Positions 1,373 through 50,874 of a DNA stretch of 64,000 nucleotides are shown here, piece after piece. The position numbers and the translations under genes were made by a program. This stretch comes from Lytechinus pictus. Lineage: Eukaryota. The stretch lies in assembly GCF_037042905.1 (NCBI RefSeq), contig NC_087245.1:2048001-2112000 (forward strand), in the 5' to 3' direction. Numbering within the stretch: position 1 is the stretch's first letter; the number at the start of each line of letters is the position of its first letter. The notes beneath the pieces were generated by a model. That model was not told where the DNA came from, ran no database searches, and saw only the letters and a list, made by a program, of their open reading frames with translations.

Positions 1373-4300
1373 GATCAACAAGAAGAAATCTAGGAGACAT
1401 TCAAATCAGAATTACATATAGTTGCTCTTCAGACAAATGCCCATCCCTTCACTCCGTAGTAAACAGTGAAGTATTCAATCACACCTAGTATGCTGTTGAT
1501 AAAAGTAAAGGTATTTCAAACCTACAATTATCAATAGAAAAAAGAAAATATTTCCAATACTACATTAGTTGTTTATCTAATATCCAAGGATGAATGGAGT
1601 TGATACACAGAGAGAGAGAGACAAATGCTTCCAACAATGGATGGTACATGTAGATGGTAAAACAATACTCAATCTACTTCTCTCTGCTTATATGAAAATA
1701 CCCTGTATTCAGATTTTCACAACACCTCGGCGACCGTCAGCTGCCCTTGTTCATATTTGGTTTAGAGATGTGTCACACTTTACCATTCAATCCAGATAAG
1801 TTTAAAAAAACATCAGCCCTGGACAGTTTCCCATGTCATGGTTCATAGAAATCCTAGTGTGTCTTCCATCCACAACTTCACTATTGAATCTAAGCAGTAG
1901 TTGTCAGAAATACACTAGCAGTATCCCCTTCCAATGCAGTGTCACAAGTAAACAATTACCAGTCTTCAAATTTACATTTCCATCAGTCATATCATATATC
2001 TGTGGTATAAAACCAAATATGACATTTTGTACATCAATGCTTGCACACTTCAGCCGAGTAGAGTCCCCAAACCACATTCCATACCATATTTCAAACAATA
2101 AAGATTTCTCATTAATCCTGTATTAAAGCTATCATAAATTAAGGACTTCTCAAGTTCCACAGGTAAAGCGGTGTACGTGTAAAATGTCAAAGGCACAATG
2201 CTATTCACTCTCTGTTCACCATTCAAAACGTTGAGAATGCAAACAATCCGTCATTTCACCACTAGAGGATAGAGATATTAGCCCAGATGTAATTAACTCA
2301 ACCTTTCTCATCCACTAGAGTGTAACGCCATCTACACCAATGCGTTGACATATATCAAAAGAATGTAATGCATCATTATGCAGCTATACACTGTATGTGA
2401 CATATGACTAAAACTGAAACATTTCCTAAATAATGATTTTTTTTCAGATGTCATGTTTCTTCTGTCTTACATGTAGGAATAAAATATTATGCATTAAAAA
2501 AATCACAAAGGAGGTTTAATACGTAGACTACAATGCTATGAATGTCATGTCTATTGGATCATGGAAGGTCCATGATTGGACGATAACTAATTCGCAGATG
2601 CAACCCCTTATGTCAGGAAGTGAATGCAGAAAACAAAAGCAAGTATTTGTTGGCGTTCAGTGGTTTTGATTCTGATTCCTCTGATTTTGAAATGTTTTGA
2701 AAGCCCAAATAAAGCTTTGGTAAATGTGAATTCATCAATTATTACAATCATACAAAGATGAAGTGGCCATTGAATCTCTTTTCAACCATTAAAATTCAAA
2801 TTTGGAATTGCTTTGTACATTATTTTGCATTATCTCTCTGTATTACTTTTCTTTGAGTACTCAGTTAGTAAATTTTAATTGCAGTTGAACTAGAAAGCTA
2901 AAAATCAGCCAGCTTGACAAGTGGTTTTATATTTAAAAATGACAAAAATATGCAGATATCTTATTTTTAACCTGATCAAAATAAATGTTTATTGAAAATC
3001 ATAAAAAAAAATATATCCCCTGAAACATTACATTTAATACCATTCGCATAATTGTTTAGTGCATATGAATTGCAATAATGACACCCACCTTCTGAGGATT
3101 TACCAAAACCAAAGATACAATTTTAAAATGTCTATTCAAACATTCATTATTATCTGTGTGATTTGCTTATGATTATGAGATCCAACATTCACATCTTTAT
3201 TTAAAATAAGTCTTTTGTTAATACTTTTATTTAAAATTAAAAGCTACATGGAATACAGACAATAAAGGCATACTCAAATGAAATTAGAGTCAACTCAATC
3301 AAATATTAATAGACCCTGATATATCCATTCAGGTTGATAGCTTTAGAAAAATATTGAAGCATGCTTAACAAATCAACTCAGTAGCTTTGATATCATAGAA
3401 GCTAATGTCTGTCTTCTAATGCATCTCATTTCTGATGATTGCTAATACACTGTTTTTTTAATCTTTTTTGTCTCTCGTGTACATTACATGTATATCGTGA
3501 GTCTCAAACTCTCAGTCGATTTTAATATTGAAAAATGCCTTGATACAAACCTTAAATAGCAAAATAACCTCCTTGATCCACATCCAGACGAATGTTATCT
3601 ACATTGTATATTATGTACATGGAAAACTTTGCAGCATCTGATTGTATCAGTATCTTGAAAATCAGTTTTCCAGAATCTGAAAGACGATTCCACTTTCTCG
3701 AAAATAGTTCTGGCTCTTTGACAATAACTCTAGGATGTTTGCATTGGACTTTTTTCATTGCGCATCAAACTCAACCTCTATGTCCTTGCATGAAAAAGTG
3801 ACAACAGATGGATCGATCAAGATCTATTGTGATTGCTTCAGTGGGTCTATTGTTATCTGTTAAATAAACCGATATTGATCCTTGGTGGGAAATTTATTGT
3901 TATTCTGTACATGTAAGGAAAAGTAGGGAGATGATAATACTTTCAAGTATGAGAACGGGTACAACTAAATCCTGATTTCTATCATATTTTTTGTACAAAA
4001 AATTGTAATGAGTCATTGTTTTTAAATAATATATAATTTTCCCCTCTTTGTTCACAAATGGAATATTTCGAATGATATATAAGCTTCATATGCACCTAAA
4101 AATCAAGGCGAACAAGATGTACTCCTGTTTATGATAGATGTATACTGAAGGATATAAATTCCAGTTCATATAAATATTGAGAATCTATTACAAAATTAAA
4201 TTATAAAGCTACATGTACTTGTTGAATGAGCAATAATGTGTTAACAGCTTTCAAATATTTTAATAAACAAATCACTGGAAATTTCAATGATATAGTGAGC

Positions 4301-14062: not shown

Positions 14063-14309
14063 AGGTCATGTGGTCTACTGGAATAGAGCATTGGACTCAT
14101 AATCACAAGGTTGTGAGTTCAAATCCCCACTCTGCCATTGTCTTCACTTTGATAAAAAGGCCCGAGAGTAATATCTGTCATCTTTAAGATGTGACTGATT
14201 AAACTATAGACATAAAATGTTTCCTAGGTAATCGGTTATAAATCAGCTTGGCTTTTGTCATGCCAATTTCCTACGGAAGTTACCATAAAAAGAAACAGAA
14301 ACAGAAATA
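14063..14309 (+). mobile_element. tRNA-derived SINE (Met-like head)
   Basis: A-box-like gtggtctactgg, ctcataa loop, B-box gagttcaaatcc, then a non-tRNA body ending in (gaaaca)n. Confidence 0.7.
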
Positions 14310-14352
14310 TGATGATCATAATAAGGTAAGATTGAAATAATAATTAACCAAC

Positions 14353-14484
14353 CTGTGAGGGTTCCAGCTTCTTGTATACCACTGGTCACCGCATCGTCTT
14401 CGTTATCTGAATGGCCAGTTGTGAAATACTCTTCAGTAAGTCTTTGGTTGCGGTCAGACTCTGTGTCCGTTGCCAGCTTGACCA
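14353..14484 (-). CDS. TRAK1: TRAK/Milton exon (VKLATDTESD...EAGTLT)
   Basis: ttttctcctgatctgccacaccAG acceptor and G|GTTGGT donor. Splices in frame to 9117 to give ...GTLTDLHNTSNIPEVE, like TRAK T.TD.....PEVE. Confidence 0.8.
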
Positions 14485-15370
14485 CTGGTGTGGCAGATCA
14501 GGAGAAAATCAATGATAGTAGTGTCTTTTTGATGGCAGGTGTGTACTAGCCTGTTGACGCCATGCTCTTAATAGATGAGATCTCATTCACATGAATCTGT
14601 AGGCAAATAACAATACAGCAAAGTGCAATCAATATTAGTGATAGAAATGTATGTTAATAGTAGAAAATCAAAAATGTTCATGTCCAAGCTAATTAGGGTT
14701 AATGAGAATAGAATCAAACTCAAAGTAACCGTGGACAAAATCATGGAATAATCCGGAAAAAGTAATTACTATATATTTCAGATTGGCTCAAGAAAATGAT
14801 TGCGAAAGGAAAAGGAAGTGAACCCAGCAATAGCAATAGACTTGCACAAATTGCAATCTTGATTTTAAATCAGCAAGATGTTATATGGATACTTAAAATT
14901 CAAAGTAAGCTTTGATCTAACTTTTGACTTGACCACCAGAATAATAATACACACAAAGTAAATTGAAGATACAAAGATGCAACAATCCAAGATGACTCAC
15001 AGTCAAATGTGACAGGAAAACAGATGGGTATGAATTATTCACATAATTATTTTAGTTTTATGAGTCACTGCATCAGACAAATATAATCCAGCAAATTACC
15101 TCTTTTCAATCTAGAGCAAGATTTTGGCTGACAAAAAGCTCCTAACCATGGTTAAGCAAACTAAAATACATGCACCACTGATCGACCCTGGCATGGCCTG
15201 ATTTGCGCCACCTAAATACATTGTACCCTTAACCATGTTCAGTCCTAGTTAGATCATGGAACTGGTCCATGACCACTTCTTTTCTAGTTTCAAATGTTTG
15301 GCCAACCAAAGATCTTTCAAATATTAATTTTAGCCAGCCGAGTATGACTTTCTATATGTTGATTAAATAG

Positions 15371-15424
15371 ATAGTCAATTGTGGCAGTGAAAGGGTAAAC
15401 CCTTTCACTGCCACAATTGACTAT
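15371..15424. repeat. Perfect 26-bp-arm hairpin, probably two piggyBac-like ends back to back
   Basis: atagtcaattgtggcagtgaaagggt-aa-accctttcactgccacaattgactat. Confidence 0.85.
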
Positions 15425-15427
15425 TGA

Positions 15428-16100
15428 CCATTGTCAGCACTGCTACCATTGCCAGCACTGACTACCATTGCTAACACTGACTACCATTGGCAGCACTAGC
15501 TGACCCTCATTGGCAGCACTGACTACCATTGCCAACACTGACTACCATTGGCAGCACTGACTCTCATTGGCAGCACTGACTACCATTGCCAACACTGACT
15601 ACCATTGGCAGCACTGACTCTCATTGGCAGCACTGACTACCATTGCCAACACTGACTACCATTGGCAGCACTGACTCTCATTGGCAGCACTGACTACCAT
15701 TGGCAGCACTGAATACCATTGACAACACTGACTACCATTGGCAACACTGACTACATGTACCATTGGAAACACTGACTACAATTGGCAGCACTGACTACAA
15801 TTGGCAGCACTGACTACATGTACAATTGGCAGCACCGACTACAATTGGCAACACTGACTACAATTGGCAACACTGACTACCATTGGCAGCACTGAATACC
15901 ATTGGCAACACTGACTACAATTGGCAACATTGACTACCATTGGCAGCACTGACTACCATTGGCAGCACTGACTACCATTGGCAACACTGACTACCATTGG
16001 CAACACTGACTACCATTGGCAACACTGACTACCATTGACAACACTGACTACCATTGGCAGCACTGAATACCATTGCCAGCATTTGCTAGCATTGCCAGCG
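15428..16100. repeat. 19-bp minisatellite, about 35 copies (CACTGACTACCATTGGCAG)
   Basis: Contiguous tandem units with ordered variants. Confidence 0.95.
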
Positions 16101-16200
16101 CTTGCTTTCTTCAAACATCTCTAATCAAACTCACATGACATACATGTACATGTACATGAATCTATCCATCATTGCTTTTTTTAATGTTTACATTTCATTT

Positions 16201-16827
16201 TTAAAGGTCAAGTCCACCCCAGAAAAATGTTGATTTGAATAAATAGAAATAAATAAAACTAGCATAATGCTAAAAATTTCGTCAAAACCGGATGTGATTG
16301 TAAAATAAGAAAGTTATGAAATTTTAAAGTTTCGCTTATTTTTCACAAAACAGTGATATGCACAACTCAGTGACATGCAAATGAGACGAGGATGATTTCC
16401 CTCACTCACTATTTCTTTTATTTTTTATTGTATGAATTATACAATGATCAATTTTTTACAGATTTGACAATAAGGACCAACTTGACTGAACAATATAGTA
16501 TTAAACAATGCTAATTCCACATGTTCAGGGAGGAATTACGGTAACCGTTGTTGCACTTGACAATGAGAAAATTAGAATATTCCATATTTCATATAATAAA
16601 ATACAAAAGAAATAGTGAGTGGATGTCACCAGTCTCCTCAGAGTCCTCATTTGCATACCAACCAGGATGTGCATATAACTGTTTTGTGAAATTAAGCGAA
16701 ACTTTAATAAAAAGTCATAGCTTTCTTATTTTACATCTGATTTTGATGAAATTTTCAGTGTTATGCTTGATGGACTATTTTCTTTTTATTCAAATCAACT
16801 TGTTGTTGGGGTGGACTTGTCCTTTTA
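16201..16827. mobile_element. Kolobok/T2-like MITE
   Basis: ttaaaggtcaagtccacccc ... ggggtggacttgtccttt; relatives at 28581, 40807, 56355. Confidence 0.8.
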
Positions 16828-18030
16828 TTAAGTCATTTGCCATCATTCAGTGTTTCACAACCTTTAAATGCATTTTAGATACAACCTTTAAACGCAATCT
16901 ACATTAGAAGTCAAATGTTTCAAATAATGCTTACAAAGAATGAAAGTAAAAACAATATTGAATTTATTAAGTATATCAATTAGCAAAGAGTAAGCTGAGA
17001 AAATAAATAGGAAAATTTTCTCAAATACATACTGTATTCTAATGATAAGATCTGGATTCCCCCACCATACACAATAATATTGCTAAATGGTGGGGAGGCA
17101 AAAAAATAATCATTCAGTTATAATTAAACTACTGTATCTCAGCGAAAATTCAAATATTTAGAATAGTGACCAAAACTGGGTTGCCATTTAGTATCATCAT
17201 AAACAAAATTAAAGATGTTACATCTTTAAAGTGCATTAATAATGACATGAAATGCAAACAAATGTGCATGTTTACAGTGTTACGTCTAAATTTATACGCA
17301 AGAACTTGGAATAGTCATTTATTGCAAAGATTCTACTTGCCCCTTTGAATGTCAATTGGGATCATCTACAAGGTACATGTAAACATGATCGAGTGGAGTG
17401 AAGAGAGAACATGAGATGAAAGCTCGTTAATAATTGACAGCTGCCACAGTCACCCATTATCGAAACAAACAAATGCTTCTCATTAACATATCTGTGTGAA
17501 TCTGTCATTACAAAGTCACAATATTTATGATCATTAATGTTATACATCACAAAACTTCACCATGATACCATGGTTACAGGAGTTTTATACCTCTTGGAAT
17601 AATTTTACTTTATGAAATGATTTCATTTTCAAATCTGGTGGCATACATGTGTATACATACAAACAACAAAATCAATTTAATGCACACTATCCAGTGGATG
17701 TAAAGTGTACTAGATGAGATCTGGTATACTGTATGTGCAGGCGCATGCTATTTTAATAATACAAATTGACAAAGCGACCATTTGATTGGGACATGTACAA
17801 TGTACTCCTCTACAGTTTTTCAAGGGATCAATTAACTGTGACTGTGTTGAAAGTATTTGCAACTTTGCATTAAATTGAGAGGTACATTGTAAATGTAGTC
17901 ATTATAATCAACATTGGCAATACTAGTACATTATTACATCATTTACATGTACATGTACCATTTACATTTAAGTCTCTAGAAAAAGATCTATTTTTTTCAA
18001 AGAAAATACAACTCTTCATATACATGTATA

Positions 18031-20439
18031 CACAACAAAAAAAGTAAGTCCCCCCTTAAACAAACATCCATAATTTCCTAACCAATGCGAGTTTTTAATA
18101 CATTTTTACATGAGCGTGTAGGTAATTTCATAAGCTACCCTCTGAGTAAATGTCATGGACGTATTTTATGTCATGCTTCAGTGAGCTTCGCCAGAAGGCA
18201 AAATTGTCACTTTTCAAAAGTCACACGCCAAATATCATGATTTTGATTCCACTTTATTGGAACGAATTCCACATTCTCATCATGAAAAATAGTCAGAAGG
18301 CTTGTAAAAGACACTACTTTCTAAAAGACGATACAAGGTTTTTGTTAAATTTCACAGTTGAATAAACACAAGTTAAAATTTTCTATAATTGGAGTTTATT
18401 ACACATTTCTATCGATAAAAATGATCTAATATGATGACAATTATTTTTGGGAAGAGTATTTTCAACAATATTAATCATTTCACGAATCAATGAAAATTAA
18501 ATGAAAGCAAAAAATACGAATTTCAAATATCATAGGCAAGTATTGTTTCATTTTGGTAACTGAAATAATCTTTCCTCAACTTTTTTTGTTATGTTCATGA
18601 CCATTTAACATGCTGCAATGATTCAAATGCGTTTAATTAAACATTCACGCCTGAATGAACATGTGGAATGCGATTAGCTCTTTTTTTCGTTATTGGAAAA
18701 AATGCAATTGCTAACTATGGATATTTGTCACAAACCTCCTTGCATCGTTCATTTAATGTGATTTTTATGAAAATCCCGATGTTTAATGCTTCAGTGAGCA
18801 CACAATATTCGAAAATTATGCAAATGAGAAGAAAGTTTAAGGACTTAGCCCCACTCTGTGCCATATCGAATGATTATTTTGGTGTGCGCGCCTTTCGGAT
18901 AGTGTTAATCTAAAGCTATGTGCGAAGTTTCATGAAGAAATTGTTGGCAGAAGTAACAAAAACCGTCCATGAAACAAACCCTCATTTCATTTTTGTTAAA
19001 ATTTTGACTTCCTCTCTCATAGACATTATGTAAACTATGGGTGCATATGTTTAAGAATAAGTGACCCCTTATTCAATATGGTGGAACTTTTTTTCAAGGC
19101 TGTCTTTAGTGATGTCATTTAGCAGTTATATTTATCAACCTATGGGCAGAATTATGTGCAAAAATGAAATCGATATGTTTATTCATGGATGAGTGAGCAT
19201 GCATCAAAGTGGGCAAAGAGGCATTTTCAATGTCACAGACTCATTTTGAGGGGGTAATGAAGGGAATAATGGGGGCAAATTTGGTTTCAAACGTGACTTA
19301 ATTGCTGTTGTTTTTATCGTCCATCAGTTTTATCACCACACACTTCCGAACTTTTAGCATTTTCATGGTTGAGCGAGCACATTCGAAAACTTGGGAATGA
19401 ATACTCTGTATACTGCATAAATGCAGACCTTCATTTTTGAGGAGCGCGATCGCGCCGGCGCTCCTACCGCGCTCCTAAATAAAAATACGGAGAACAAAAA
19501 ATCGCGCTCCTAAAAAAAAATTAAAAAATTGAAAATTGCTAAAATTTCATATTTTACATCTCAGTTGAAAACTATCAGAAAAATGAAGAATATTCACCTC
19601 TTTCCCGACTCTTGTTTTTAATTCAAACTCGGTAAATATTGTAGTCTCATATATGTAGATTTTTATGGCAACACCATGGAAGTCTACATGTGGGACTACA
19701 ATATTTACCGAGTGTAAGTTCAGATCAGAGTCGGAAAAGAGGTGAATATTCTTCATTTTTCTGATAGTTTTCAACTAAATCAAAATAATTTCAAGGAATT
19801 ATGGAAAAAAAAAAAATTTAAAGCAGGAGCGTGATATTTTGTAAACGTATTGACCCAGGCCTAGTTTCACCACAGATTAATTAATAGCTACACAGCTATT
19901 GCATATATATACAATGTTAAGAAAAAAATCTACAATCTATCATACTTGAATTGATTTGAGCTCCTCAAGGAGAGCGATTCTGAGGAGCTCAATTGAGCTC
20001 CTCAAAAAAATAAGGAGAGCGATTTATTGAGCTCCACGAAATTATAAACGTGAAGGACTGTAAATGCATCCTTTTCCTAACAATTTCTCAGGATCAGTTG
20101 AATTTATGGACAAATCAGTGGTGGATCCAGAATTTTGAAATGGGGAGGGGCTGAGTAATTGGGGGAGCGACCAACATTTTCCAATTATAACATGTTTTAA
20201 CAAGTTGTATAGGGGACACTGCCATAAACCCCTATGATGATACGTCACAAAACATTGTGCTCACTCAACCATAAACATACGATATCAAAATTTGTGTGAA
20301 GTGGCTAAATGATGGATAGTAAAACAGCATTAACACCATAAAATTCACCTAAACCACCTACGAAATATCATATTTAAAAATTATTCCGTTCAAAAGTTAC
20401 AGCAATTTGATTTAGGGGGGACTTACTTTTTTGGTTGTG
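18031..20439. mobile_element. Non-autonomous Tc1/mariner-type element with CA...TG ends
   Basis: TA|cacaacaaaaaaagtaagtccccc ... ggggggacttacttttttggttgtg|TA; no transposase ORF seen. Confidence 0.85.
19424..20060. mobile_element. Nested TIR element with 6-bp TSD (taaatg), hAT-like CAG ends, and an internal ~215-bp palindrome (19563-19776)
   Basis: taaatg|cagaccttca ... tgaaggactg|taaatg; subterminal gaggagc repeats. Confidence 0.7.
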
Positions 20440-20519
20440 TATACATGTATATTCAACAGTGTATAATGTGATTGTTTTCCCCCCATTTTTAAATTTTTTA
20501 AAGAAGAACACAGTAGACC

Positions 20520-21045
20520 CTGGGGAGGGAGGGGGCAGTCAATGATTCAAATGTATTGCTGTACACATGCGTGACCAAATTATTATACCCCCTATTAAAC
20601 GAGTTTTTCTCTGTGTGCAAAATAACCCCCTAAACAAGTTTTTCATAGGCTTCATTTACACATTTTGGCCCCTAAACAAGTTGTCGCCAGAATATGACCC
20701 CTAAACAAGTTTTGTCTCGGGCCCAAAAACTTTTCAGAAATGAGGAAAAAGCCCTGAGGAAAAGCTTGGGGAAAAAACATATCCTAAACACGTATGGCTA
20801 GTCTTAAAAGAAAGGTTTGGAAAAAAAACATGTACCCTTTATGTTTGACCCCGCGATTGACCATTGACCAGTCTTTCAAAACCACCCTTTTTTTAAAATC
20901 AGTGTTTTTTTATACCCTTAACGAGTGCATGCGCGGCCCGCGGCCAAAACTGAAAAAAAAAAACTTTAATATCAAACACGTTTTCTTGGCCATGCATACA
21001 TGTGTACAGCAATATATTTGACTGCCCCCCCCCCCCCCCCCCCCG
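20520..21045. mobile_element. MULE-like MITE with G/C-run TIRs
   Basis: 9-10 bp TSD acagtagac(c) at 20510 and 21046; TIR ...gcagtcaa..tattgctgtacacatg. Confidence 0.75.
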
Positions 21046-22655
21046 ACAGTAGACCAAGTTCAGACTTCAAAGTCAGAGGAAGTCCTGATTTCTGAACCTG
21101 AAGGAAATCCTGAGATTTCCCTTCATTATGTATTAATGAACCCTACTTGCTACTACAGTTACTCAGGATCAAGCTATACCCGAGCCCCTTCCCATTAATC
21201 ATATTTCCAGGCAACACACTGCACATGGGTGTTATTGCAAATCAAGTGAATTCCAACAGCAGTGTACATGTACATGTGTAGATGGCTGATCAATCATATT
21301 TGATGGAGGTGTCTCACAAAACCCTGAAATGGAGATCTAAGGAACTGACTACAAGATCTACAGTGGTGAAGAATTAAACTTATCTTCCATATTACATGTA
21401 GTCCAGTTTGGCCATTGATAGAGGGTAGCTTCATGTAGGCTACATTGTACATGTACCTTTCCCAGAACCAACATAGGGAATAACACATGAGCTGAGAGGA
21501 TTGTCACTGGGTTAGGCAAGTCGGCTCTGGCAAAGCTAACTTCCCTCTGAACTACTTCCGCAAGGGCAAAGTACTCTAAATGTTCCTTAAGTTCAAGTTT
21601 GTAATAAAGTAGCCTAACTTCATTCTTCAAAGGTTACTCGTGGCCACACTATATGGCTCATCAATGACAACTGGTCATATCATCTCCCCACATGTAAAAT
21701 GTGTATCGATATGGACATACATGTATAGCCTACATCTACATGTTCAGTATAGGCCTCCATCATAAGTGGTCCAATATTTAACATAAAAACTAAAAAGATA
21801 TGGAAAAACATCTTTAAAAGTGTACACATGTAGGCCGACAAGTACAAAAGAGTACCAAAGTGTGACATCAATTTTCACTTTTTGCATTTCAGTGTTTTTT
21901 ATATCATATTTTGGTAGAGCATGATAACAAAAAACCACAACCCAAATTTGGTGAGAATCAGTCAATGGGGTCCCAAGATATGACCTCATGAATATGTAAT
22001 TAGCCCCATTGAAGTGAATTATTACTGGCCTGGTTCTCAAAGTTAGAAACCAGGCCAATTGACTTCAATGAGGCTAATTATGTATTCATGAGGTCATATC
22101 TCAGGCCCCCATGGACCGATTCTCACCAAGTTCTGGGTATCAAAATCGCTAAAATGCAAAAAAAAAGGTTTTGTGACGTCATCACTTCAGTACCATACTC
22201 TATTACATACATTGTATGATTTGTAATGTTCTACTGCTACATGGATGTTTGTGTATTTCATGTATTGTAACCACACTGTATTATCCCCGCACAAATTTTC
22301 ATAAAATAATTATTAAAAATAACACAAACACTAACAACAACAAAACACATACCTGTACAGGGAGAGATACGTACATGTACATGTAGAGACAAAGTCTTTA
22401 CACAACAGCATCTCTGTACAAATACATTTACGTTCTTAATAAATATGAAATGATATATTCTAGGAAGTCAAGGTTTCAGTCAACTCGGAAAAACAACAAT
22501 GCACTCAAAATTACAACATCATTTATCCCCCCAAATACATGTACTTCCTCAAATCGCAGTATACAATATGTCTATGCATACACTTCCAAATGAATACTGT
22601 CTGTATGTCTGCCTAATGAAAATACTCCTACTCAAGTCATTTCAAAACTTCTTTA

Positions 22656-24301
22656 AGCCCCCTTTACACCAGATGAAGTTCCCGCTATGTTGTTGAAATT
22701 CAAAAGAAAACCTAGGACCTGGCAACAAATTTGTTTGATTTCCTCGAACAATGTGAAATTGTCAAGTGCATGCTGCGTCCGTGCCACGTCCTTGTCAATT
22801 TTGAACTAAGTTTATTCTGCGCGCACAAGCGTTCCATGCTGCGAAATGATTCCCACTACGTTCGGACTACCGTACATCCAGCAAATGACACAATTTGTTG
22901 TACCTTGTCTATTTGGCATAGCTCCAACTGATACCCCCATTACACCAATGCTACGTCCATGCAGCTCTCGCTGCATCAAAGAAAAATGACTATGACGCAG
23001 TGGGAACCGCTACAGCATACTGAGAGCAAAGCGAGAACTACATGTATTATTGACTTGGCATAGTCTTCATTAGACCAAAAGCTTCGGTCTCTGTTACATG
23101 TATATTGGTTGTTCTGCTGAACTCCGTTGGCTCCACTCACCAATTACAGAGACCGTAGTTCTAACTCAATTTGTACAGGGACTCAATGGCAAAAGAAGAC
23201 AAGTTAAAAAAAAAACCTGATAAAACCATTTTTAAAGTAATAATTACTGTACATAACCTAGTATTATGAGTGCCATAATGATATTTGGACTCATTTCTTA
23301 CCCTAAATTCCCGCCTTGAAAGAAACTGATTAAAATTAATATCTTCATGTGATTCTAATCGTTTGTTGGACTATGTAAGCTGCCATGATGCCATCTTGGT
23401 TCTGAAAATGATGACAGACTCCACCCACGGAAATAAAAATGCTTTTTTTTTCTTTTTGGTGCATTTAAGGCCATAACGAAACATTAATCTTTATTTTGGT
23501 CCAGTTCTTTTTATATATTTTATGAAATAAGGACAAAATCATTTTTTTTGTATTGTTAACCCCCTAATGGCGGCTGCACGATCGTGAGCCATCTGTGTAT
23601 GAGGAGAAATGTAAAAAAATTTAAAATGTTAAAAAAACTCCTCAAAAAAGACGGCTGCCAGCTGTCTAAGTCTGCATGATCTCCACAGACCAAGTTTCCG
23701 CCACATATCCAAAGTCCAAGTAGCGGAAACCGTTTCGACGAAGTATGGACCGCTTCTTCGCCCACAATAAACCTAGTTCAAAACTGACAAGGACGTGGCA
23801 TGGACGCAGCATGCACTTGACAATTTTATATTTTTTTATAACATCAAATGTTAGCACCGCATCCTAGGTTTTCTTCAGAATTTCAACAACGTAGCAGGAA
23901 CTTCATCTGGTGTAAAGTATGTAGTGACAACGGAATATGCTTAGCGGCCGTGCAGTAGACATAGACAGAGTTGTTGCTAGTTCTTTATATTCCACCATGT
24001 CTATGCTACGTCAATGGAGCTGTTAATAGTAGGTGTCCTATGATGGTCCTTGCTGAGTCATTACTACATGTACGCGCTATTCAGATGGCGCTCCTGCTAC
24101 GTGGACTTTGCTTTGGACATGTTCAAAGTCCACGTAGCGGAAAATGGGTCTCCGGAGATCATGAAGACTACATGTATGCCACATCACTGACATTTCTCAG
24201 AACGCTCTCAGTACCCTGATGCAGTTCCCCACTGCATCACGGCCATGTTTTGTTGACGTAGTGAGAACTGCATGGATGTAGTGTTGGTATAAAGGGGGTA
24301 T
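22656..24301. mobile_element. Harbinger-like MITE containing an inverted copy of its own family (22931-23917)
   Basis: Outer ends agccccctttacacc / ggtataaagggggtat; inner ends atacccccattacacc / ggtgtaaag; A-B-A'-B' inverted-repeat pattern. Confidence 0.65.
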
Positions 24302-25632
24302 TATAGACATCACAAAGATAGATATTAATTTTTCAATCCTGGCCGAGAAACTATTTTCTTGTTTAAAAAAAATAGTAAGATAGCAAATAGGACCTCCCTC
24401 ATCACTGCTCTCGAAAAACCTGGACGATCAACTACTTTCTTTTTTACTTGGCCTAAAAGGAGTAACAAAGAGTAGAAGTCAACCAGTTAATATTGCAACT
24501 CACATCTCTATGTCGAGTGTATGATTTATGAATCCATCGTGTTGTACTACCCCCAGCCAGTACAAATGATACATGTACATAGCATATCTGTACATCGTTC
24601 TTGTATTTGGAGTAAAGGCCTCTCAATCCAGAGACAATAGCAAAATAAGACGGGTATGAGTCAGATTGCAAGTTCTCACTATCAGGGGCCAGGAGTTTAT
24701 TTGTAGTGTGTTACATTTCACTGCATGAAAAATTGAAGATATCCCAATAATAATCAATAATTCATTAGCATAACTGCAAATGCCTGGAACCAAAATAAAA
24801 GCATCCAAAGTCCCTAAATACTGTACAAAAAAAAAAAAAAGAGTCCCAAAATGTCAGACATTTGAACACTAAAACAATATTTTGCACATGCCCATGCACA
24901 CAATCTAACTGTTGAAACAGGACTGTTCCTCACTTGGAACATAAGTTTTGTTTTAATCTTGCAGAATTACATACTTTAATAGTAATACATGTACATGTAG
25001 ACTGTCCATACTTCCTTAGGTCACAACTCTTTTTAGAACAGTATACCAAGTCCTTCTGAAACTGAAAGTGCACTCTGTGTTACTTCCTGTGGCGACAGAC
25101 ATGTAATGCTACTTGTTAACACTTTAACAAGCTCAGCCTAATCCTGCCATCTCATTCCTCGCCCTTTTTTATCCCCACATTCCTCCTTTCTTAATCCCAA
25201 ATAACCCTACTTCTTGAATATGTGACTCGATCATTCAACATTGTAATTCAGAAGCACTTGATATGGTGTACTCAGCTAGTAAAATATAAAATAAAAACCC
25301 AAACCAAAGCTAAAAGCAAAGTTGACAGAGCTGCCAACCTTGTCACCAAATATTTGTTTTTCCAAAAAAAAAAAAAAATTTCAATCTCCCATCTTTTTTA
25401 AAAGAATGTATTTATTGACCTTTGTCATGCAGCTTTTTTCCAATACATTTGTTATTCTGAAATCAATAACCTCTGGGGTAAAATGTAAGTGGTTAAAAAA
25501 GAAAACAATTGGATCACCTCTGGCAGTCTCGCCTGCATGAGTTATTCAATATAGCAGCACTGCCAACTCTGAAAGTAACTAGAATATTTTTTCCCAAAGA
25601 GGGAAAAAAACATTCATTTCATAATTACACAC

Positions 25633-27676
25633 CCAGGGGGGCCACTTCCATTGACAAGTGGATACCGTGCGTGACCAAAAAAAAATATGTAAAAAGGATC
25701 CCTTTTTCAAGAAAGGGCACGTTACCGTACGTAAAAATTCTCTCTGAGTACAATTTTGTTCAAATTTGATAAACTTTATCCTATTCAATTTGATTGAAAA
25801 AGATGTAAAAGAACGTCCAGTTGATTTAATACGTGAGGTACAAACAATAAACATCAAATGAACAACAATAAATCAAAATAATCATTTAACAATCAATAAC
25901 AATCAAGAAAAAATAAACAATGTTAAACATTAAATGAATTGGTAAACAAGCAGGACAAACTGCGATGCAAAACCATGCGTTAAATCATGAAAAAAAAGAA
26001 TGGCTCTCAAAAACTGAAAATGGCTCTTGTAAAATGAACAAGTGGAATGCCTCTGGCCGTCTCACCTGCATCACGCGATTCAATATAGCAGCAGTGCTGA
26101 TTTTGAAAACTACTATAACTCGCACAAGATGTTCAGTGATACTTGGTTACTCTTATTTCCACGTTTTATGAACTAGACCAATACACTTATAGAGATATGA
26201 TGGCAATTCAACAAATACCCCCAACGTGGCCAAAGTTCTTTGACCTTACATGACCTTTGACCTTGATCATGTGACCTGAAACTCGCACAGGATGTTCAGT
26301 GATACTTGATTACTATTATGTCCAAGTTTTATGAACTAGACCAACACTTTCAAATTTATGGCTGTAATTCAACAAATACCCCAATTTGGCCAAAGTTCAT
26401 TGACCCTAAATGACCTTTGACCTTGATCATGTGACCTGAAACTTGCACAGGATGTTCAGTAATACTTGATTACTATTATGTCCAAGTTTCATGAATCAGA
26501 TCCATAAACTTTCAAAGTTATGATGGTAATTCAACAGATACCCCCAATTCGGCCAAAGTTCATTGACCCTAAATGACCTTTGACCTTGGTCATGTGATGT
26601 GAAACTCATGCAGGATGTTCAGTGATACTTGATTAACCTTATGTATAAGTTTCATGAACTAGGTCCATATATTTTCTAAGTTATGATGACATTTCAAAAA
26701 CTTAACCTTAGGTTAAGATTTTGATGTTGATTCCCCAACATGGTCTAAGTTCATTGACCCTAAATGACCTTTGACCTTGGTCATGTGACATGAAACTCAG
26801 GCAGGATGTTCAGTAATACTTGATTAACCTTATGGCCAAGTTTCATGAACTAGGTCCATATACTTTCTAAGTTATGCTGTCATTTCAAAAACTTAACCTC
26901 GGGTTAAGATTTGGTGTTGACGCCGCCGCCGCCGTCGCCGCCGCCGTCGGAAAAGCGGCGCCTATAGTCTCACTCTGCTATGCAGGTGAGACAAAAATGG
27001 CTCTCAATTTTTTTTTTAAATGGCTCCCTAATATTGAAAATTAATTTTTACACTGGTAATAAGGGTGTCAAAAAAACAAGAGTGTCGCTACTTAAGGCGA
27101 GCACATAATACGCCCACCTGCAACGCGGAAAATGGAGCTATTGGTGATTGGTCAAGCAAGTGGAAGGTGGCGACTTCACCTTTGACCTTCTGACCTCAAA
27201 ATTAAAAGGCTTCCTGTGATCTATGCTAGTATCATACACACCAAATTATATGAGCCTAGATTAAGTTCAACTGAAGTTATCGCATTTACAAGGACTGCAG
27301 AAGGGTAAGGTGAAAACATGTCACTGTGACCTTGACCTTTTGTATAAAAAGGGGTATATATTTCGCTAGGAAACGTGTTTACAGTCCAATTTGCGAGGGT
27401 ATAAAAAGAATAAAATATCTTCTTGCCCCAACACTACGTGTTTAGGGTCCGATTTGAGCGAGGTGTGTGGGGTGGAACTAAACCCAATGAAAGTAAAGGT
27501 AAAGCCGATGTCCCTGACCTAACCCCTCCTTGTTAAGGGTAGGGTTTCACACGCCAATACTTGTTAAGGGGGGCATTTTCAGAACATGGAAAATACTTGT
27601 TTAGAGTGCTTTTTGAAACCCCATGGTCACGCATGGTATCCACTCATTAATGGAAGTGCCCCCCCCCCCCCCCAGG
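25633..27676. mobile_element. TIR element of the CCGGGG-ended family, hosting the 26037 element
   Basis: gccacttccattgacaagtggatacc..gtgacc / ggtcacgcatggtatccactc..aatggaagtgcc; another end of the family at ~30620-30665. Confidence 0.7.
26037..26997 (+). mobile_element. Helentron/HINE-like element with internal ~160-bp TGACCTTTGACC tandem units
   Basis: Sub-terminal IR gtctcacctgcat / atgcaggtgagac, GC-rich hairpin cgccg..cggaaaagcggcg near the end, A-run flanks, no TSD. Confidence 0.75.
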
Positions 27677-29166: not shown

Positions 29167-29741
29167 AGAAATATCAGGGTGAAAAGTCAAAATCAAATAG
29201 ACAAATACACCCCTTTTTTTACAATTCGCGGGCCGAACTTGTCCCGCGACAAAGTACCCCTTTATAGGACATTTTGGGAACACGCATTTGGTCCCTCCGA
29301 CAGAGGGGGGGGGGGGGGCCGGAGTTACATGTATGTATCATCATAACCTTGTAGTTGTATTGTTCATTTGAATAAGTGGATCATCATCATGACTTCATTA
29401 TATTTATAATGATTATTGATTATGTCTATCGATCTTGACTTGATGATGATCTTGTCTGCCTTTGAGTTTGAATCGGCGATAGGGATCATTGTAAAAAATA
29501 TCGAACTAGTAGAAGTCTAATGTTACGTCCCTTCTTTATTCCATCCCATATACGCGTATCCGAGATGCAATTTTTATCAGCATGCTAGGTCTAGCTGTCA
29601 ACCGCCGGGTACAGCGCGGCGGATAGCAGCTAGGTCTAGTGTCAACCGCCGGTTCGCGGCCCGTTCCTTACTCTACAAAGTCCGCAAGAAGTTATGCGGA
29701 GTTAAAGTGCTAGCTAACTCAAATTGAGTCTCGATACTTAC

Positions 29742-29918
29742 CGGTCGGTATCTCTTTCTTCAAATTGACGAAAATGACAATAATAATAAGAAAATCTCTA
29801 AGAGGGTGAGTAGTCCTTAAATGAATGAAAGAAAATAAATTGTCAAAATCTTTCTGGCGGAAGGGAAATTATGAAAACGGACCAAGCATCACAGTTCACC
29901 CAGTGCAGAGGAGAGTGT
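29742..29918 (-). other. Probable non-coding first exon of TRAK (5' boundary approximate)
   Basis: CG|GTAAGT donor at 29741 in a CpG-rich island, just downstream of promoter motifs. Confidence 0.55.
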
Positions 29919-29950
29919 CAGGAAGTCGCCATCTTATCAACGCATGCGCG
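29919..29950 (-). promoter_or_regulatory. Housekeeping-type promoter cluster: ETS (CAGGAAGT), YY1 (CGCCATCTT), NRF1-like (CGCATGCGC)
   Basis: Three motifs within 32 bp. Confidence 0.6.
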
Positions 29951-31073
29951 TAATCGTATGTTAGATATATATTATAGAGAACATTATGATGGCATACCGT
30001 ACCCCTAATATAAATTATATTAGTAAATGACAATAAAAAGATCCTCTCCGTTAGATATCTTATGGTCTTTGTTAGATTTTTGCACAAAAATTAGATGGTG
30101 GTTGGTCGGACCAGTGGGGGATGGCCAAATAAGGATTGATCAAAATCTAGCTAATGTGATCCAGGGCCAGCTTGGCCCTTTGGCTTGGCCCCACACCAGT
30201 ATAGCATGAGGGGCCAGGCCCCTACCTTCCAAACGTCGCGCAAATCGGACTCTAAACACGTAGTTTACCTTGATTTATTTACCTTGATGTTGGGCATAAA
30301 GTATAGAAGACTTATTTGCCCCTCTGCATCTTCTTAGAACTTGTCCTCAGTTATAAACGTAACAATTTCACATGCATGTGTGGGTTTGGACGATTTGTGA
30401 AAATTCTGTGTTGGAGCAAAAAGGACATCCTTTATAAAACATTAATTTAATTTTGTTTTATCATCCCCGCAAATTTGACCCTAAACACGTAGCTTTCCTA
30501 ACGAAATAGATACCCTTTTTTCATTATTTTTGTGTTTTTGACATCCTTATCACGTTACGTACGTATAACGTGCCCTATCAGGCTATCTTGAAAAAGACAT
30601 CCTTTTTACGTGTTTTTGGGGTCGCGCATGGTATCCACTCGTCAATGTAAGTGGCCTCCCCGGGGGGCCAGGATATATCTATTTCGATTTTGACTTTATA
30701 TTCAGAAAATTATATCGCAGGCACAGGTTTCGGATTTCCCCCCTCGGCCCCTCCCCCCTTCGGGTCATGAAACTTTTGTGTGGGCCGGGGTCTGAGTAAC
30801 CAACGATTCAGATGTATTCTTTGCAACCCCCACTCATCCCCTTTCTGTCTGCCTGAGTGTCTCACTCTTTCCGATCCGCCCGGTCTCTCCGCCTATCATT
30901 TTTTCCCAAGTGCACCTCTTTTGCCATCCAATGGTAACTAACCATGCATGGTGATGGGCCACTTACCATAATAGGAACTTTTGATGCAACAGGATCCAGA
31001 TGCCAATTTTTACCTGTGTATATTTGACATATAGTCATGCTATTGAACCAACTTTTATGCAACGCGGGGCCTT

Positions 31074-33499: not shown

Positions 33500-35260
33500 A
33501 ATTTGATGAAATTTTCATGGATTTTGGACACTGATAATTTGAAAACGAGCACATGGACCCCATAGTTTAAATGTCTTAACTTCTTCAGAATATATTCCTC
33601 TACAAATCTAGAGAGTATGATGAAAATGACATGGATTTTGAATGTTTGGGAGCGGAACTACGGAACCATTCGTATTTTAGACATTTTGGACGGTATTATC
33701 AGACTTTTACTTAATTTCGGCGCATTTTGGGCCGTTTCAAGCCAGCTCGCAACATTTTGGACACTGATAGTTTAAAAACGAGCACATGGACCCCATATTT
33801 TTAATATTTCAACGTCTTCAGAATATATTCCTCTACAAATATAGAGAGTATGATGAAAATGACATGGATTTTGAATGTTTGGGAGCAGCACTACGGAACC
33901 ATTCGTATTTTAGACGGCATTATTAGACTTTTGCACGTTTCCGGCTCATTTAGGCGATTTTCAAGCCAACTCGCAACAGTTTGGACCCTGATAACTAAAA
34001 AACGAGCACATGGACCCTATATTTTTAATATTTTAACGGCTATTGAATATATTCCTCTACAAATTTAGAGAGAATGATGAAAATGACATGGATTTTGAAT
34101 GTTTGGCAGCGAAATACGGGAACCATTCGCATTTAAGACGGTATTATTAGACTTTTGCACGTTTTCGGCGGCGCATTTTAGGCGATTTTCAAGCCAACTC
34201 GCATCACTTTGGACACTCATAGTTAAAAAATGAGCACATGGACCCTATATTTTTGATATTTTAACGGCTTTAGAATATATTCCTCTACAAATTCAGAGAG
34301 TATGATGAAAATGACATGGATTTTGAATGTTTGGGAGCGAAATTCAGGAACCATTCGCTTTTTAGACAGTATTATTAGACTTTTGCACGTTTTCGGCGAA
34401 TTCGGCGCACTTTAGGCGAATTTCAAGCCAACTTGCAACACTTTTGACACTAAAAACTAAAAAACGAGCACATGGACCCTATATTTTTAATATTTTAACG
34501 GCTATTGAATATATTCCTCTACAAATTTAGAGAGAATGATGAAAATGACATGGATTTTGAATGTTTGGGAGCGAAATTCAGGAACCATTCGCTTTTTAGA
34601 CAGTATTATTAGACTTTTGCACGTTTTCGGCGAATTCGGCGCACTTTAGGCGAATTTCAAGCCAACTCGCAACAGTTTGGACCCTGATAACTAAAAAACG
34701 AGCACATGGACCCTATATTTTTAATATTTTAACGGCTTTAGAATATATTCCTCTACATATTTAGAGAGTATGATGAAAATGACATGGATTTTGAATGTTT
34801 GGGAGCGAAATACGGGAACCATTCGCATTTTAGACGGTATTACTAGACTTTTGCACGTTTTTGGCGCACTTTAGGAGGATTTCAATATTTTCAAGCCAAC
34901 TTGCAACACTTTTGACACTAAAAACTAAAAAACGAGCACATGGACCCTATATTTTTAATATTTTAACAGCTTTAGAATATATTCCTCTACGAATTTAGAG
35001 AGTATGATGAAAATGGCATGGATTTTGAATGTTTGGGAGCGAAATGCGGGAACCATTCGCATTTAAGACGGTATTATTAGACTTTTGCACGTTTTCGGCG
35101 CATTTTAGGCGATTTTCAAGCCAACTCGCATCACTTTGGACACTCATAGTTAAAAAACGAGCACATGGACCCTATATTTTTAACTTCCCTACACCTTCGA
35201 TATGCATTCCTCTACAATTTAGCCGAATTTGATGAAAATGATATGGATTTTGAAAACAGT
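33500..35260. repeat. Tandem array of a ~230-bp unit, 7-8 copies
   Basis: aaacgagcacatggaccc recurs at ~33543, 33776, 34000, 34229, 34463, 34696, 34929, 35156. Confidence 0.95.
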
Positions 35261-42254: not shown

Positions 42255-43267
42255 AACAAGTGGAACGCCTTTTGGCAGTCTGGCCTGCATTACGCGATTC
42301 GATATAACAGCAGTGCTGACTTTGAAAACAGCTCTTGAATAATTATTATTCATTATAAAATATACTATGTCCATTGACCCAAAATGACCTTTGACCATGA
42401 TCGTGTGACCTAAGACGTGTGCAAAATTAACAATTATTCATACTTGATTGCCCTTGTGTCTATGTTTCATGAACTATAGATCCATAAACTTTCTAAGATA
42501 TGATGCCAATTCAACAATACCCCAACACTGCCAAAGTTCATCGACCATAAATGGCCTTTGATCATGGTCATGTGACCTGAAATGCGCACAGGATATTAAG
42601 GGATATGGTTGCTCTTTAATATGTTATATGAACTAGATCAATAAACTTTTTAAGTTATGATGAAAATTCCACAAATATCCTCGATCAACAGTACCAAAGT
42701 TTGTTGACCCTAAATGACCTTTAACCTTGGTTACGTGACCTGAACTTCGCACAGGATGTTCAGGAATACTTGATTGCTAGTATCCGTTTCATGAACTAAT
42801 ATAGATCAATCAGAAACTTTTTAAGTTATGACGGTAAGTCAACACTAATACCCCCAACTTGGCCAAAGTCCATTGACCCTAAATGACCTTTGACCTTGGT
42901 CATGTGACCTGAAACTCAATGTCTAAGTTTCTCATGAACTAGGTTAATACTTATAAGTTATGATGACCAATGTTGCTTAAGATTTTGATTCCCCATGTGT
43001 TTACTAGTTGATTGACCCTAAATGACCTTTGACCTTGGTCATGTGATGACCTGGAACTCAGGCAGGATGTTCAGTAATACTTGATTAACCTTATGTCCAA
43101 GTTTCATAAACTAGGTCCATGCATATATACTTTTCTGAGTTATGTCATTTCAAAAACTTAACCTTCTGTTATTTGATGTTGGGGATGTTGACGCCGCTGC
43201 GCCGCCCCGCCGTCGGAATAGCCGCGCCTATAGTCTCGCTCTGCTATATATGCAGGCGAGACAAAAA
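42255..43267 (+). mobile_element. Helentron/HINE-like element, diverged copy of 26037-26997
   Basis: Same start, internal units, hairpin and gcaggcgagacaaaaa end. Confidence 0.75.
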
Positions 43268-43293
43268 CTGCTCAGGATGTTTTAGGTGTAACT

Positions 43294-43438
43294 CACTGGC
43301 AGATCCGTGGGAGCTCAATTTTTTTTCGTGGACGAAATGTCCTAGTTATTGGTTGAAGACCCCCTTTTTTTTTGCTTGTCAGATTTTTCCTCGGGAAAAT
43401 GTGCCCCCCCCCCTTGGAAAATCCTGGATCCGCCCCTG
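43294..43438. mobile_element. hAT MITE
   Basis: 8-bp TSD gtgtaact; cactggcagatcc / ggatccgcccctg ends. Confidence 0.85.
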
Positions 43439-43652
43439 GTGTAACTACTTGAAATGTAAAAAAAAAAAGGGAAAAAAGAGCTCTCAATTCACTAGCCCGC
43501 AATTCTTTTGACAAGTTGACATCGGAGTTTGATGCCATTTTTCCTAATAATATGTTTCCCGGGATTGTTTTACCCGACGATAATTATGATTGCGATGAGT
43601 ACCAGGTTCGTCGCATGAGGGAGGCAAACAAAATAATGAACTATGACCCAAA

Positions 43653-43688: not shown

Positions 43689-44130
43689 GTAATATTTTAT
43701 TTCACAATCTGCCATAAAAATGGCATACATGATATATAATTAAATACCTTTTTAAAGTTTTGATGAAATGAAATTTGCCCCTGGTATTAGTTTAATCGTT
43801 TGGAATCTGTAGATTATGATAAAACGTAATAGAAATAGGGAAATTATAGATATAAATCCCGATCAATTATCGCGTGTTCTGCGACTGCGCCCATTGCATC
43901 GTTCCCATTCGGGCCACGCATTGGTTACCGATACTGTATCTGAAAACGTGTGCTGGAATCCATGGTCATGGAACGCTGCGTGTGTCATGTGCAGATGTGT
44001 GTTGTGTTCAGCTGGTTGTGTTGGTGAGAAGGGTCGTTGGCTAGCCTACGGCTAGGCTAGTAAAAATCATTTACTAACCTATGCTTACTCTCCACAGAGC
44101 CAGGGATTCTATTGCATTCATCTAACTTTA

Positions 44131-44741
44131 CATGTATACCCAGTTGTTGTGTGTCCGGACAGGTTGTGTGTCCGGACGATCAGTTTTAGAAAGTCATTTG
44201 GAAAACTTTACAAGCAAAGACAGTTTCATAAAATGTTTAGTACGAAATGTTAGGTAATATTATAGAGAACAAAACAGAAGATGATTACAATTATTGAATT
44301 CGTATTTTTAGTGTAATCCAAAGACAAAAAAGAAGGCTTCAAAAATATTAAGTGTCCGGACACCCCACCCCCCATCCTACCTGGTATTGCCAAAAAACCT
44401 CAAAGTCAAACTTTCGCCCCCGAGATTTCTACTTACTGTACCGTACCTTCTAAGTTCTATTTTTTCTATCTATTTCTAAAAAGGATCTAGGCCCAGCCCT
44501 AATTAAATCATGTATACCCAGTTGTTGTGTGTCCGGACGATCAATTTTAGAAAGTCATTTGGAAAAATTTACAAGCGAAGTTTCATCAATTTTTAGTACA
44601 AAATGTAAGGAAATATTATAAAGAACAAAATGGAAGATGATTAGGCCTACAACTATTGAATTCATATTTTTAGTGTAATCCAACGACAAAAAAGAAGGCT
44701 TCAAAAATATAAAGTGTCCGGACACCCGACCCCCCATCCTA
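44131..44741. repeat. Two direct copies of a ~230-250 bp sequence (44131-44380, 44509-44741)
   Basis: catgtatacccagttgttgtgtgtccggac ... cccccatcctac occurs twice. Confidence 0.85.
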
Positions 44742-45233
44742 CATGGGATACAACGTCATATCTACGAAATTGATGTCATTTTTAAACAAGAATTCATTCA
44801 AAAATGAGAAAAACTATTTGAAAAGACGGGGATAACTTGCCACCGTGATGACGTCGCCATCTTGATTTGATTTTCTTTCGCTTGGTGACAGCACGCAAAC
44901 TGAGCGATTTGCTCCATCTAGATGTATTTTGTTTCAAATTTGTTATTCTATCAACAAGTGAGTAATGTCTCTGCTTGCTCTCTCACTGGATCTGGTCAAG
45001 CCTCTTGAACATAAAGACAATTTCTGCATTGACACAACATCGCACAATACCTCTTGCATCATCACGATAATGCTTTGATCCTTAATAAATAATAAAATAA
45101 AATAAAAAAATAAATAATAAAACCACATCAAAATGCAGCCTTTCTCATAAAAAAATCCTAGAATTGTGTGTGTGAATGGGTGCAGATATTTGGCAAAATG
45201 TTTAATTTGAAAATGGCTGGATGAGGATTTTTC

Positions 45234-46964
45234 TAGTGCTGTAGCCGAATTGCCGAACGGAAGTTCGCCGAACGTGGCACAACCGAACCGAACGCAAAGG
45301 CCTGGTTCGGTGGTTCGGTAAAAAAAAATAGGCACATTAATTTTGCAAAGTAATATGCATAACAGCAGGGACTACATAGATTTGAGTATAAAATAAACAT
45401 TTTTATTGGTTAGTGATTGTGCACAATAAGAATTCCACACAAAATATTTTTAAAATCCACTATGAAAGCTCCCATCTCGTCTTTGATTAAATTGTCATCA
45501 ACTTCAGAATTTTTTTATTAACATGAATGTATTATTTCTTCATAAAATGAGGGGACATTTGAAGCTAAACTCGGTATAAAATTGTGGTTGAATTACATAT
45601 TGCCGTAATCGATCGTAATCGGACCTAATTATGTTGTATTTAATAAAGAAAAAGGACCAGACATAAATTCATTCCTCGTAAATGACTAAGTATGACAGCT
45701 TCGGTCTCGTCTTAGATTGAATTTTTATCAGTTTCAATTTTTTTTTATAAACATTAATTTATTTTTTTCTTCATAAAATGTGGGGACATTTTTTAAGCTA
45801 AACTCAGTTAAAAAGTGTAGTTGAATTACATATTGCTGTAATCGGACATACATGTAATTGTTTTGTATTAAAAAAAAAGACAAGACATAAATTAATTCCT
45901 TGTGACTGACAAAGTAATGGTAAAGTATGTATATTTCACCTTCTGAAATGTCCATATTATTATAAAAGATAAATAAATAAGAGATGAAGGAATGAGGGTA
46001 GAAAAAACAGAAAAGATAAAAATTTAAAGCAAATCAACGCATGTTCCCTGATCGCGATCTGGAAATGGTTGGTAAGGAAGGTTGGAACAGGAAGTCCAAA
46101 CAACCTGCTCTCAGTTGCTATTATACAGGTAAAATTCATATTCCGAATTTGAAACGTTTTTCCGTTGTCATTATTTTCTAAAAAGTGGTTTAATCTGGTC
46201 AATTACTGAAAACGAAATGATATAAATTATCAGTTCCGTCTTGGTTCTGAAGATCAACGCCGAGTGATTTCACAACACTAAAATACACAGTACTGTCCCA
46301 TGTACTCATTTTCGTGTTGGAAATATGTTTGAAGTCACGTAGCGTCGATCTTTCTTGACCAAGAATGGACTGATATTTTATCTGTTTAAAGTAATTGATT
46401 GACCAGATTTAACCACTTTTCACAAAATGGGGACTTTCTAGAACATTTCATATTCTTTGGAATGTGAATTTTACCAGTATAATAACAGTTGAGTGGAGGT
46501 TGTTCACTGTTTCGACGTTCTTGATCAACACTTTCCAATCGGAGAAGCTGCGTTTGCAATGACATTGTAATCGATCATGAGTGACCATAGCTACATGAAA
46601 TAATCATGAAAAAAAATATTTGATCTTTGTAATTCTGTTTGTCCTGATTCTCTCGTTATCAATATTTTTTTCTTTGTTCTTTTTTTATTTCATTTTAAAA
46701 ATCAAAGTAGAAATGACTCTTATTTTTGTTTAAAGATTAAAATAAATAAAAGAAAGTTATGCAACAATTTTTTAAACTATTTTTAGAAACAAAATTTATT
46801 ATAAATATATGACAGATCTTTGTTGGGATTATCTGTCCGAGGGTCGAAAATCCTTTATTTTATTTGTTAATAATTCAATTTGGCATTTATTGCCGAACCC
46901 CGAACCGAACCAAAGATCAGAAAAAAATTGCCGAACCGAACATGCCGCCTGACTTGCAGCACTA
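45234..46964. mobile_element. Non-autonomous hAT element in RPS26 intron 1
   Basis: 8-bp TSD gatttttc; tagtgctg / cagcacta ends; subterminal CCGAA repeats. Confidence 0.85.
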
Positions 46965-49801: not shown

Positions 49802-50429
49802 TAAGATTATAACAATAAAAAAAATCATCTAGTTGGGCAGTGTTCATCTTGTCTAAGATCTTTAGCTCAGAGGGGGACAGGGTTCAAGTTGAATGTAAAT
49901 TAGAACTGAAGACTTAGAGGGAAGCTCCTGGCTGAAAATATTATTTTAACAGATAAAGAAAAGTCAGACAAACAAAACATTGAAAATTTGATCAAAATTG
50001 GACTAGAAATAACAGTTATGGTATTTTAAAGATTTGCATTATTCCAGTGAAACAGTTCTAGACATGTCTTCTTGAATATTCAATGAACAAACTGATGTCA
50101 TATCCCCACTTGTTCTTTTGTATTTTATTATATCAAGTAAGGTTTATTCAATATTTTTTCCTCCAAGAATTAAAAATATTTTATTGACAACTGATTCAGT
50201 GCATAAGATACACTCGGCAAAAAAAGTTCTTGGACACTTAGAAAACTTAAAATATTTCATATAGATATTTGATTAAAGGCAAATTATTGTATGTCAACAT
50301 GACCACACAATATTCCTCTTCCAGTATCACATGACATTTTCATGTGAACAGTCATGCATGGGTGGTTAAATGCTTTTAACAATAGCAATGTCAGTAAAAG
50401 AAAATTGCAAGAAATGGACCATTCAATAG

Positions 50430-50787: not shown

Positions 50788-50874
50788 ATTTTTTTTTGCT
50801 TATGCCAAGATACTGAAATTTGACATTTTTTCATCGACTAACTTTGACTTAAAATTCCAGTGGAATAGTGATGC

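Follow-up and report, generated by a model that had tools for sequence, protein, structure and literature searches.

A dense field of TA-CATG-TA insertions in a putative gene body, probably left by excision of a TA-targeting transposon

Transposon excision footprints as such are already known. Worm Tc1/Tc3 excision yields a TA-CA-TG-TA footprint, and that of Minos is six bp long, a net gain of TA plus four terminal bases. Tc1 excision generates 2-nt non-complementary 3' overhangs (PMC4490562), as does that of ISY100 (PMC2170065), and the footprints of Tc1/mariner elements measure 2–4 bp (PMC7913693). Tc1 footprints in the C. elegans germline are described as highly variable (26 kinds in 103), and in the absence of polymerase theta a single class dominates (32/39), possibly through blunt ligation of little-processed ends (PMC4490562). 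The typical somatic Tc1 scar of the worm is termed '+4' (78%; PMC13148408), a label that does not give its letters. Sleeping Beauty excision is reported to keep one overhang only (PMC7827188, PMC8151067), the target preference of ZB is given as AT repeats, ATATATAT (PMC7913693), and mosaic methylation has been described for invertebrates (PMC11292947).

The 64-kb stretch of DNA analysed here (the window) is rich in the octamer TACATGTA, that is, TA-CATG-TA, and we consider it probable that each copy of this word marks a place where a cut-and-paste transposon of the IS630-Tc1-mariner kind, which targets TA, was excised in the germline and left a scar that became fixed. The locus resembles C. 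elegans Tc1/Tc3, as far as the sources cited above describe them, in its TA target, and CA...TG ends with both 2-nt overhangs kept spell TA-CA-TG-TA. It differs in that the worm '+4', if the empty TA is the starting point of the count, would read TACATA/TATGTA, a pair of words without excess in 1–29500, and in that the worm germline footprints are varied, whereas a single scar type occupies ~2% of intronic TA here. With Sleeping Beauty and ZB the locus shares the TA duplication and the terminal element bases left by end-joining, as outlined in PMC7827188, PMC8151067 and PMC7913693. However, their 3-nt one-end footprint (CAG) or 0–3 bp was not seen in excess in 1–29500, and the ATATATAT preference of ZB is not clearly seen at the window scars (p=0.06). 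The net +6 of Minos is the same as that of the window scar, but a Minos-type origin would need a CATG-ended element; the element at 18018–20452 can be read so, among other readings. The surroundings resemble invertebrate housekeeping genes with gene-body methylation in having a CpG-poor body that ends at a CpG-rich promoter, methylation being deduced here from CpG depletion. In the literature searched by title and abstract, with older and subscription papers largely outside its scope, neither scar fields in animal genes (density, uniformity, gene-body confinement) nor a link between gene-body methylation and scar density was found. The present analysis adds a proof in cis that the word is inserted, a test of whether the two array scars are independent, the finding that resident repeats lack the scar, and a pair of candidate elements.

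Empty and filled TA sites

A 19-nt minisatellite of ~34 units at 15427–16099 (no strand assigned; TRF period 19 nt, 34.6 copies, 84% matches) is the source of empty TA sites. When the array is parsed from 15456, 2/33 units are 25 nt long, namely a C-type unit at 15745–15769 on the plus strand, with TACATGTA at 15752–15759, and an A-type unit at 15808–15832 on the same strand, with TACATGTA at 15815–15822. Each is a normal unit extended by CATGTA at its TA and measures 19 nt once CATGTA is removed; unit 15808 is then identical to the neighbouring empty units 15770 and 15789, and unit 15745 is one base off the empty unit 15726. Because neighbouring units show the empty TA, the array sites are 6-bp insertions that turned TA into TA-CATG-TA, deletion from all other units being unparsimonious. 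The empty neighbours thus bear out the initial annotation, which had proposed a 6-bp insertion at TA and not a point mutation. The array is not scarred above the local rate (0.6 expected, P(2 or more)=0.12), with 2/35 of its TA scarred against 35/1635 in unique DNA (p=0.18). The array unit gave no match in a pattern scan of metagenomes. Inside the array, a perfect 3-unit (57-nt) higher-order repeat is present in three copies at 15517–15687. A 54-nt near-perfect palindrome (96%) lies at the left edge of the minisatellite (15371–15424); its arm resembles an array unit, and the fold-back may be linked to the origin of the minisatellite.

The two scars had also been proposed to be independent, since they sit on different unit variants. 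The variants do differ, by the C/A base directly 3' of the insert in 15745 and 15808, and a tandem duplication of the intervening 63 nt is ruled out, because any 63-nt frame containing scar 1 has 6 or more mismatches to the 63 nt that follow it; shuffling of variants within units leaves the question of independence itself unsettled, and we give it even odds. On the other side, with the same weight, a single insertion may have reached both units through short-tract conversion or unequal exchange that had its breakpoint between insert and C/A position; this alternative bears on independence alone and is compatible with a transposon scar. The two scars are just 3 units apart, a breakpoint anywhere within the three bases that follow CATG would suffice, and one variant at unit position 7 occurs on three different unit tails. 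Moreover, all four combinations are present in 5/20 variant pairs among 29 array units, which indicates that variants have been shuffled within units in pieces smaller than one unit; owing to these four-gamete violations, no reliable tree can be drawn from the 19-nt units. Against copying, the sequence identity around the two inserts extends over just 16 nt (7+8+1) and ends one base past the scar, the 63-nt blocks are no closer to each other than random blocks (3-unit block pairs across the array have a mean of 6.0 mismatches, and the genuine 3-unit repeat at the array start has 0), two hits are consistent with the background (P=0.12), and scar-to-scar gaps of at most 70 nt occur at the expected rate (5 vs 3.4).

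Elsewhere in the window, a collapsed-site search returned one probable empty partner. Of the two copies of a 231-nt tandem duplicate, one carries TACATGTA at 45849–45856 (no strand assigned) and the second probably shows a single TA there, in an ambiguous alignment: the single-TA reading needs a 10-nt local duplication and 2 substitutions, and MAFFT and a global aligner prefer a different gap pattern, with more mismatches. As judged from this alignment, 45849 is a probable third empty/filled pair. The initial annotation had named a slippage duplicate with no further empty/filled pairs as the outcome that would count against it; what we found is that simple slippage fails and that this ambiguous but probable pair exists. 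The partners for 23039, 24169 and 44129 lose homology at or before the scar site, and none of the 22 six-nt gaps in the self-alignment of the window outside the array is CATGTA.

At most 0.17 of the words of 16130–25990 were present in any public run, and contigs were obtained from 4/16 runs (3 samples) with 82% likeness; as many differences are common to all four runs, these look like a sister species or a distant population. Among the 32 other-sample pieces listed, at least 6 window letters are missing in 10/12 that span a scar and in 7/20 others (p=0.012), a weak support because the gaps are unplaced and the pieces overlap and are not independent. In the pieces covering scars 17374 and 21718 neither scar is missing, and both are apparently shared; four pieces begin or end at or beside a scar. 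No CATGTA indel was seen among the indels listed between other samples and the window (12 of 287), all 12 of which lie in repeats. Neither in the window nor in the other-sample contigs, which are dominated by high-copy repeats and do not include the array, was a TA site seen in empty, element-filled and scarred states, which is why we present excision as the probable cause of the scar and do not hold the footprint class as proven.

The scar field and its putative host gene

TACATGTA occurs 45 times in the window, against a mean of 1.41 and a maximum of 5 in shuffles; 43 copies lie in 1–29500 (1.8 expected) and 2 beyond (0.8 expected). With tandem doubles merged, 39/2205 TA are scar sites in 1–29350 compared with 2/2669 beyond (odds ratio 24, p 8e-12), at a boundary that was chosen after seeing the data. 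The best change-point fit is 25000 (37 vs 4 sites), and 29350 was used because scars are present at 28201 and 29326 and a CpG-rich stretch starts there. The field of 39 TACATGTA sites (1–29350) has a CpG o/e of 0.45 and, on the plus strand, an AT skew of +0.043 and a GC skew of -0.046. About 1 in 50 (~2%) of its unique TA, which we take to be intronic, carry a scar. One-mismatch neighbours of TACATGTA are in excess in the field (40 vs 25.3 expected; 17 vs 19.6 in the right part), pointing to aged scars with a divergence of perhaps roughly 4–5%. Four exact tandem double scars were observed at 16141, 17944, 22372 and 24986, and decayed doubles or triples at 16141 and 21265; the doubles could be repeat hits or products of slippage between two TA.

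The resident repeats of the gene are free of scars. With the two array scars and two element-end scars set aside, and with a mask made of self-similarity plus the interiors of two TIR elements, 0/530 TA in resident repeats carry a scar (11.3 expected, p=8e-5) compared with 35/1635 in unique DNA; either these repeats post-date the scars or they were avoided by the process. Tandem repeats free of TACATGTA are found at 26117–26920, 42369–43273 and 33523–35254 (163-nt and 234-nt families), the 163-nt family being present at several places in the window. Interleaved inverted-repeat pairs at 22662–24301 (22662–22859 with 23720–23917; 22931–23027 with 24204–24301) combine into an unusual structure, either nested or rearranged.

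The window is AT-rich, animal-type DNA (GC 0.30–0.43), and the AT skew is positive in 15/15 two-kb bins up to 30000. The last field scar (29326) lies just left of a CpG-rich stretch at 29351–30350 (no strand assigned; o/e 0.93, and 1.27 in 29501–30000), a putative housekeeping promoter in which motifs near 29920–29955 resemble, by eye, what we take to be YY1 and NRF1 sites. With CpG depletion as the sole indicator of methylation, 1–29350 would be the methylated, CpG-poor body of a minus-strand gene that starts at this stretch. A minus-strand reading frame at 8792–9163 matches the beginning of Pfam HAP1_N (E 4.7e-6; 26.5 bits against a cut-off of 33.9) and is presumably an exon of a TRAK/Milton-like gene; an Atlas search returned no hit above 0.80 and no support for this frame. 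Across 60 of the longer frames in the window, HAP1_N and DDE_3 were the sole credible Pfam matches. Further minus-strand frames that look protein-like by eye, without a Pfam match (393–707, 1904–2122, 3552–3764, 14258–14497, 21358–21633 and 24453–24710), are possible additional exons. The frame at 43110–43508 has a sub-threshold match to Toxin_28 (E 0.0017), probably by chance.

Candidate elements and the origin of the insert

The insert sits at a TA, the TA is duplicated, and 4 bp (CATG) separate the two TA copies. This combination is specific: the other 15 TA-palindrome-TA octamers occur at most 3 times each in 1–29350, as against 43 copies of TACATGTA, and CATG lies between any other repeated dinucleotide at most 6 times. 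The flank logo of the scar sites is nearly flat, and a ATATATAT context, found at 5/70 half-sites against a background of 0.03 (p=0.06), is at most weakly favoured. Sister footprints show no excess in 1–29500 (TACATA/TATGTA, 32 vs 37.5 expected; TACAGTA/TACTGTA, 9 vs 6.6; TATA, 187 vs 193).

Two elements in the window are candidate makers. The first is a decayed Tc1-like element on the plus strand (50209–52125), with TA on both sides, CA...TG ends, 207-nt TIRs at 96% and a DDE_3 remnant (E 4.7e-5, under the cut-off); it is nested in a TTAA-type inverted-repeat element (49914–52432). Its terminal bases equal those between the two TA of the scar, and it belongs to the type whose ends would, judging by these letters, give a TA-CA-TG-TA scar. 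Since CA...TG comprises 2+2 bases only, the end match does not name the element family of the scar. The second is a high-copy TIR element of 2.4 kb (18018–20452; no strand assigned) with 47-nt arms (94%) and TACATGTA at both outer ends, its high copy number being derived from read depth in other samples. The scars at its ends (18021, 20442) are in mirror position, and each lies in a 12-nt palindrome that doubles as a direct repeat. Three readings fit the letters: an element with CATG ends in a ATATATAT site, one with CAC ends flanked by two scars, and a carrier of a 12-nt duplication. The element is a possible CATG-ended scar maker. Its TIR gave no match in pattern scans of viral contigs and metagenomes. 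At 44129–44749, two tandem copies of a ~250-nt TIR-like repeat both start with CATGTATAC; TA precedes the first copy, giving a full scar, and not the second. Element ends are abutted by 3/41 scar sites (18021, 20442 and 44129), and the gene has about 39 scars for every 1 or 2 TA-flanked CA...TG elements.

The insert thus has the sequence properties of a Tc1/mariner footprint: TA duplication, 4-bp length and agreement with resident ends. For the probable transposon scar, we propose the following multistep scenario in which (i) an element would insert at TA and duplicate it; (ii) a staggered cut-out followed by end-joining would retain four element bases, either CA and TG from the two ends or a single CATG end; (iii) the outcome is the change from TA to TA-CATG-TA observed in the array; (iv) the open body of an active gene would receive most of the insertions; and (v) full elements would leave or be purged, while 6-nt scars would drift to fixation, a presumed history behind the observed density. 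The minisatellite would be a bystander, hit once or twice, whose neighbouring units preserve the empty state. One scar type at such a density calls for unusually faithful repair or a CATG-ended element, together with near-complete element loss. Against this scenario speak the lack of excess of the shorter footprints known from model elements, the one-overhang scar of Sleeping Beauty and the variety of worm germline Tc1 footprints, the want of a clear ATATATAT preference, the surplus of scars over TA-flanked CA...TG elements, and scars 17374 and 21718 being present in other samples.

The same density and uniformity leave some room for a TA-targeted process in active genes other than ordinary transposition, in which abortive integration, a domesticated transposase or host repair removes insertions almost at once without a lasting element stage. 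The single uniform scar lacking sister footprints, its confinement to the gene body, the 0/530 TA in resident repeats (11.3 expected, p=8e-5) and the few matching resident elements are consistent with such a process. However, CA plus TG is the expected leftover of an ordinary Tc1 element of the window, repeats younger than the scars would equally give the absence, and no protein of this kind was identified; we regard this explanation as unlikely. The corresponding broader picture, likewise doubtful, is a germline hit-and-run that marks ~2% of TA in the bodies of active genes with an invariant 6-nt scar, spares silenced repeats and has hardly any elements in residence, either because a transposon directed to transcribed chromatin is removed again almost immediately or because the host itself removes new insertions.

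Mechanisms that need no mobile DNA have a much lower probability. Local template switching or slippage could build the palindrome from flanking DNA (TACA and then its reverse complement); the A-type unit has TACA at its empty site, and the 4 exact tandem doubles could be made by slippage between two TA. This context is lacking in the C-type unit and in 27/35 unique sites, where the insert is nevertheless unchanged, and CA after or TG before is found at 8/35 empty sites against a background of 0.166 (p=0.36), so that flank templating is very improbable as the source. TACATGTA is dense where CpG is depleted, as would be expected if it arose by point mutation (CpG decay) or were kept by selection as a protein-binding site. 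Precursors and alternative products of CpG decay are nonetheless at background (TACGCGTA, 1; TACACGTA/TACGTGTA, 1; TATGCATA, 3), the filled units are 6 nt longer, a gain that refutes point mutation for the array sites, and selection leaves the one-step creation at TA unexplained; we hold either origin to be highly improbable. The fixed and palindromic nature of the word would also fit a ligation junction, as an assembly or library artefact, but decayed copies are in excess, the limit at the CpG-rich stretch is sharp and two scars are apparently common to other samples, which leaves this explanation a negligible chance.

Meaning of the scar field

Excision footprints are normally met as rare assay products. 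Here, one footprint type lies on about 1 in 50 unique TA of presumed introns, halts at the putative promoter and skips resident repeats. The minisatellite serves as an internal control in which empty and filled states are adjacent on one molecule, turning a k-mer excess into a demonstrated insertion. If the less likely hit-and-run process were true, it would amount to a class of mutation whose rate is a considerable fraction of that of point mutations, and it would record long-term transcription in the germline in the sequence itself. If the field, as the probable scar of a TA-targeting transposon, proves general, such scars would count transposition that left no element, would mark germline-active genes and serve as low-homoplasy markers, and would add a 6-nt insertion class to the mutation models of such animals.
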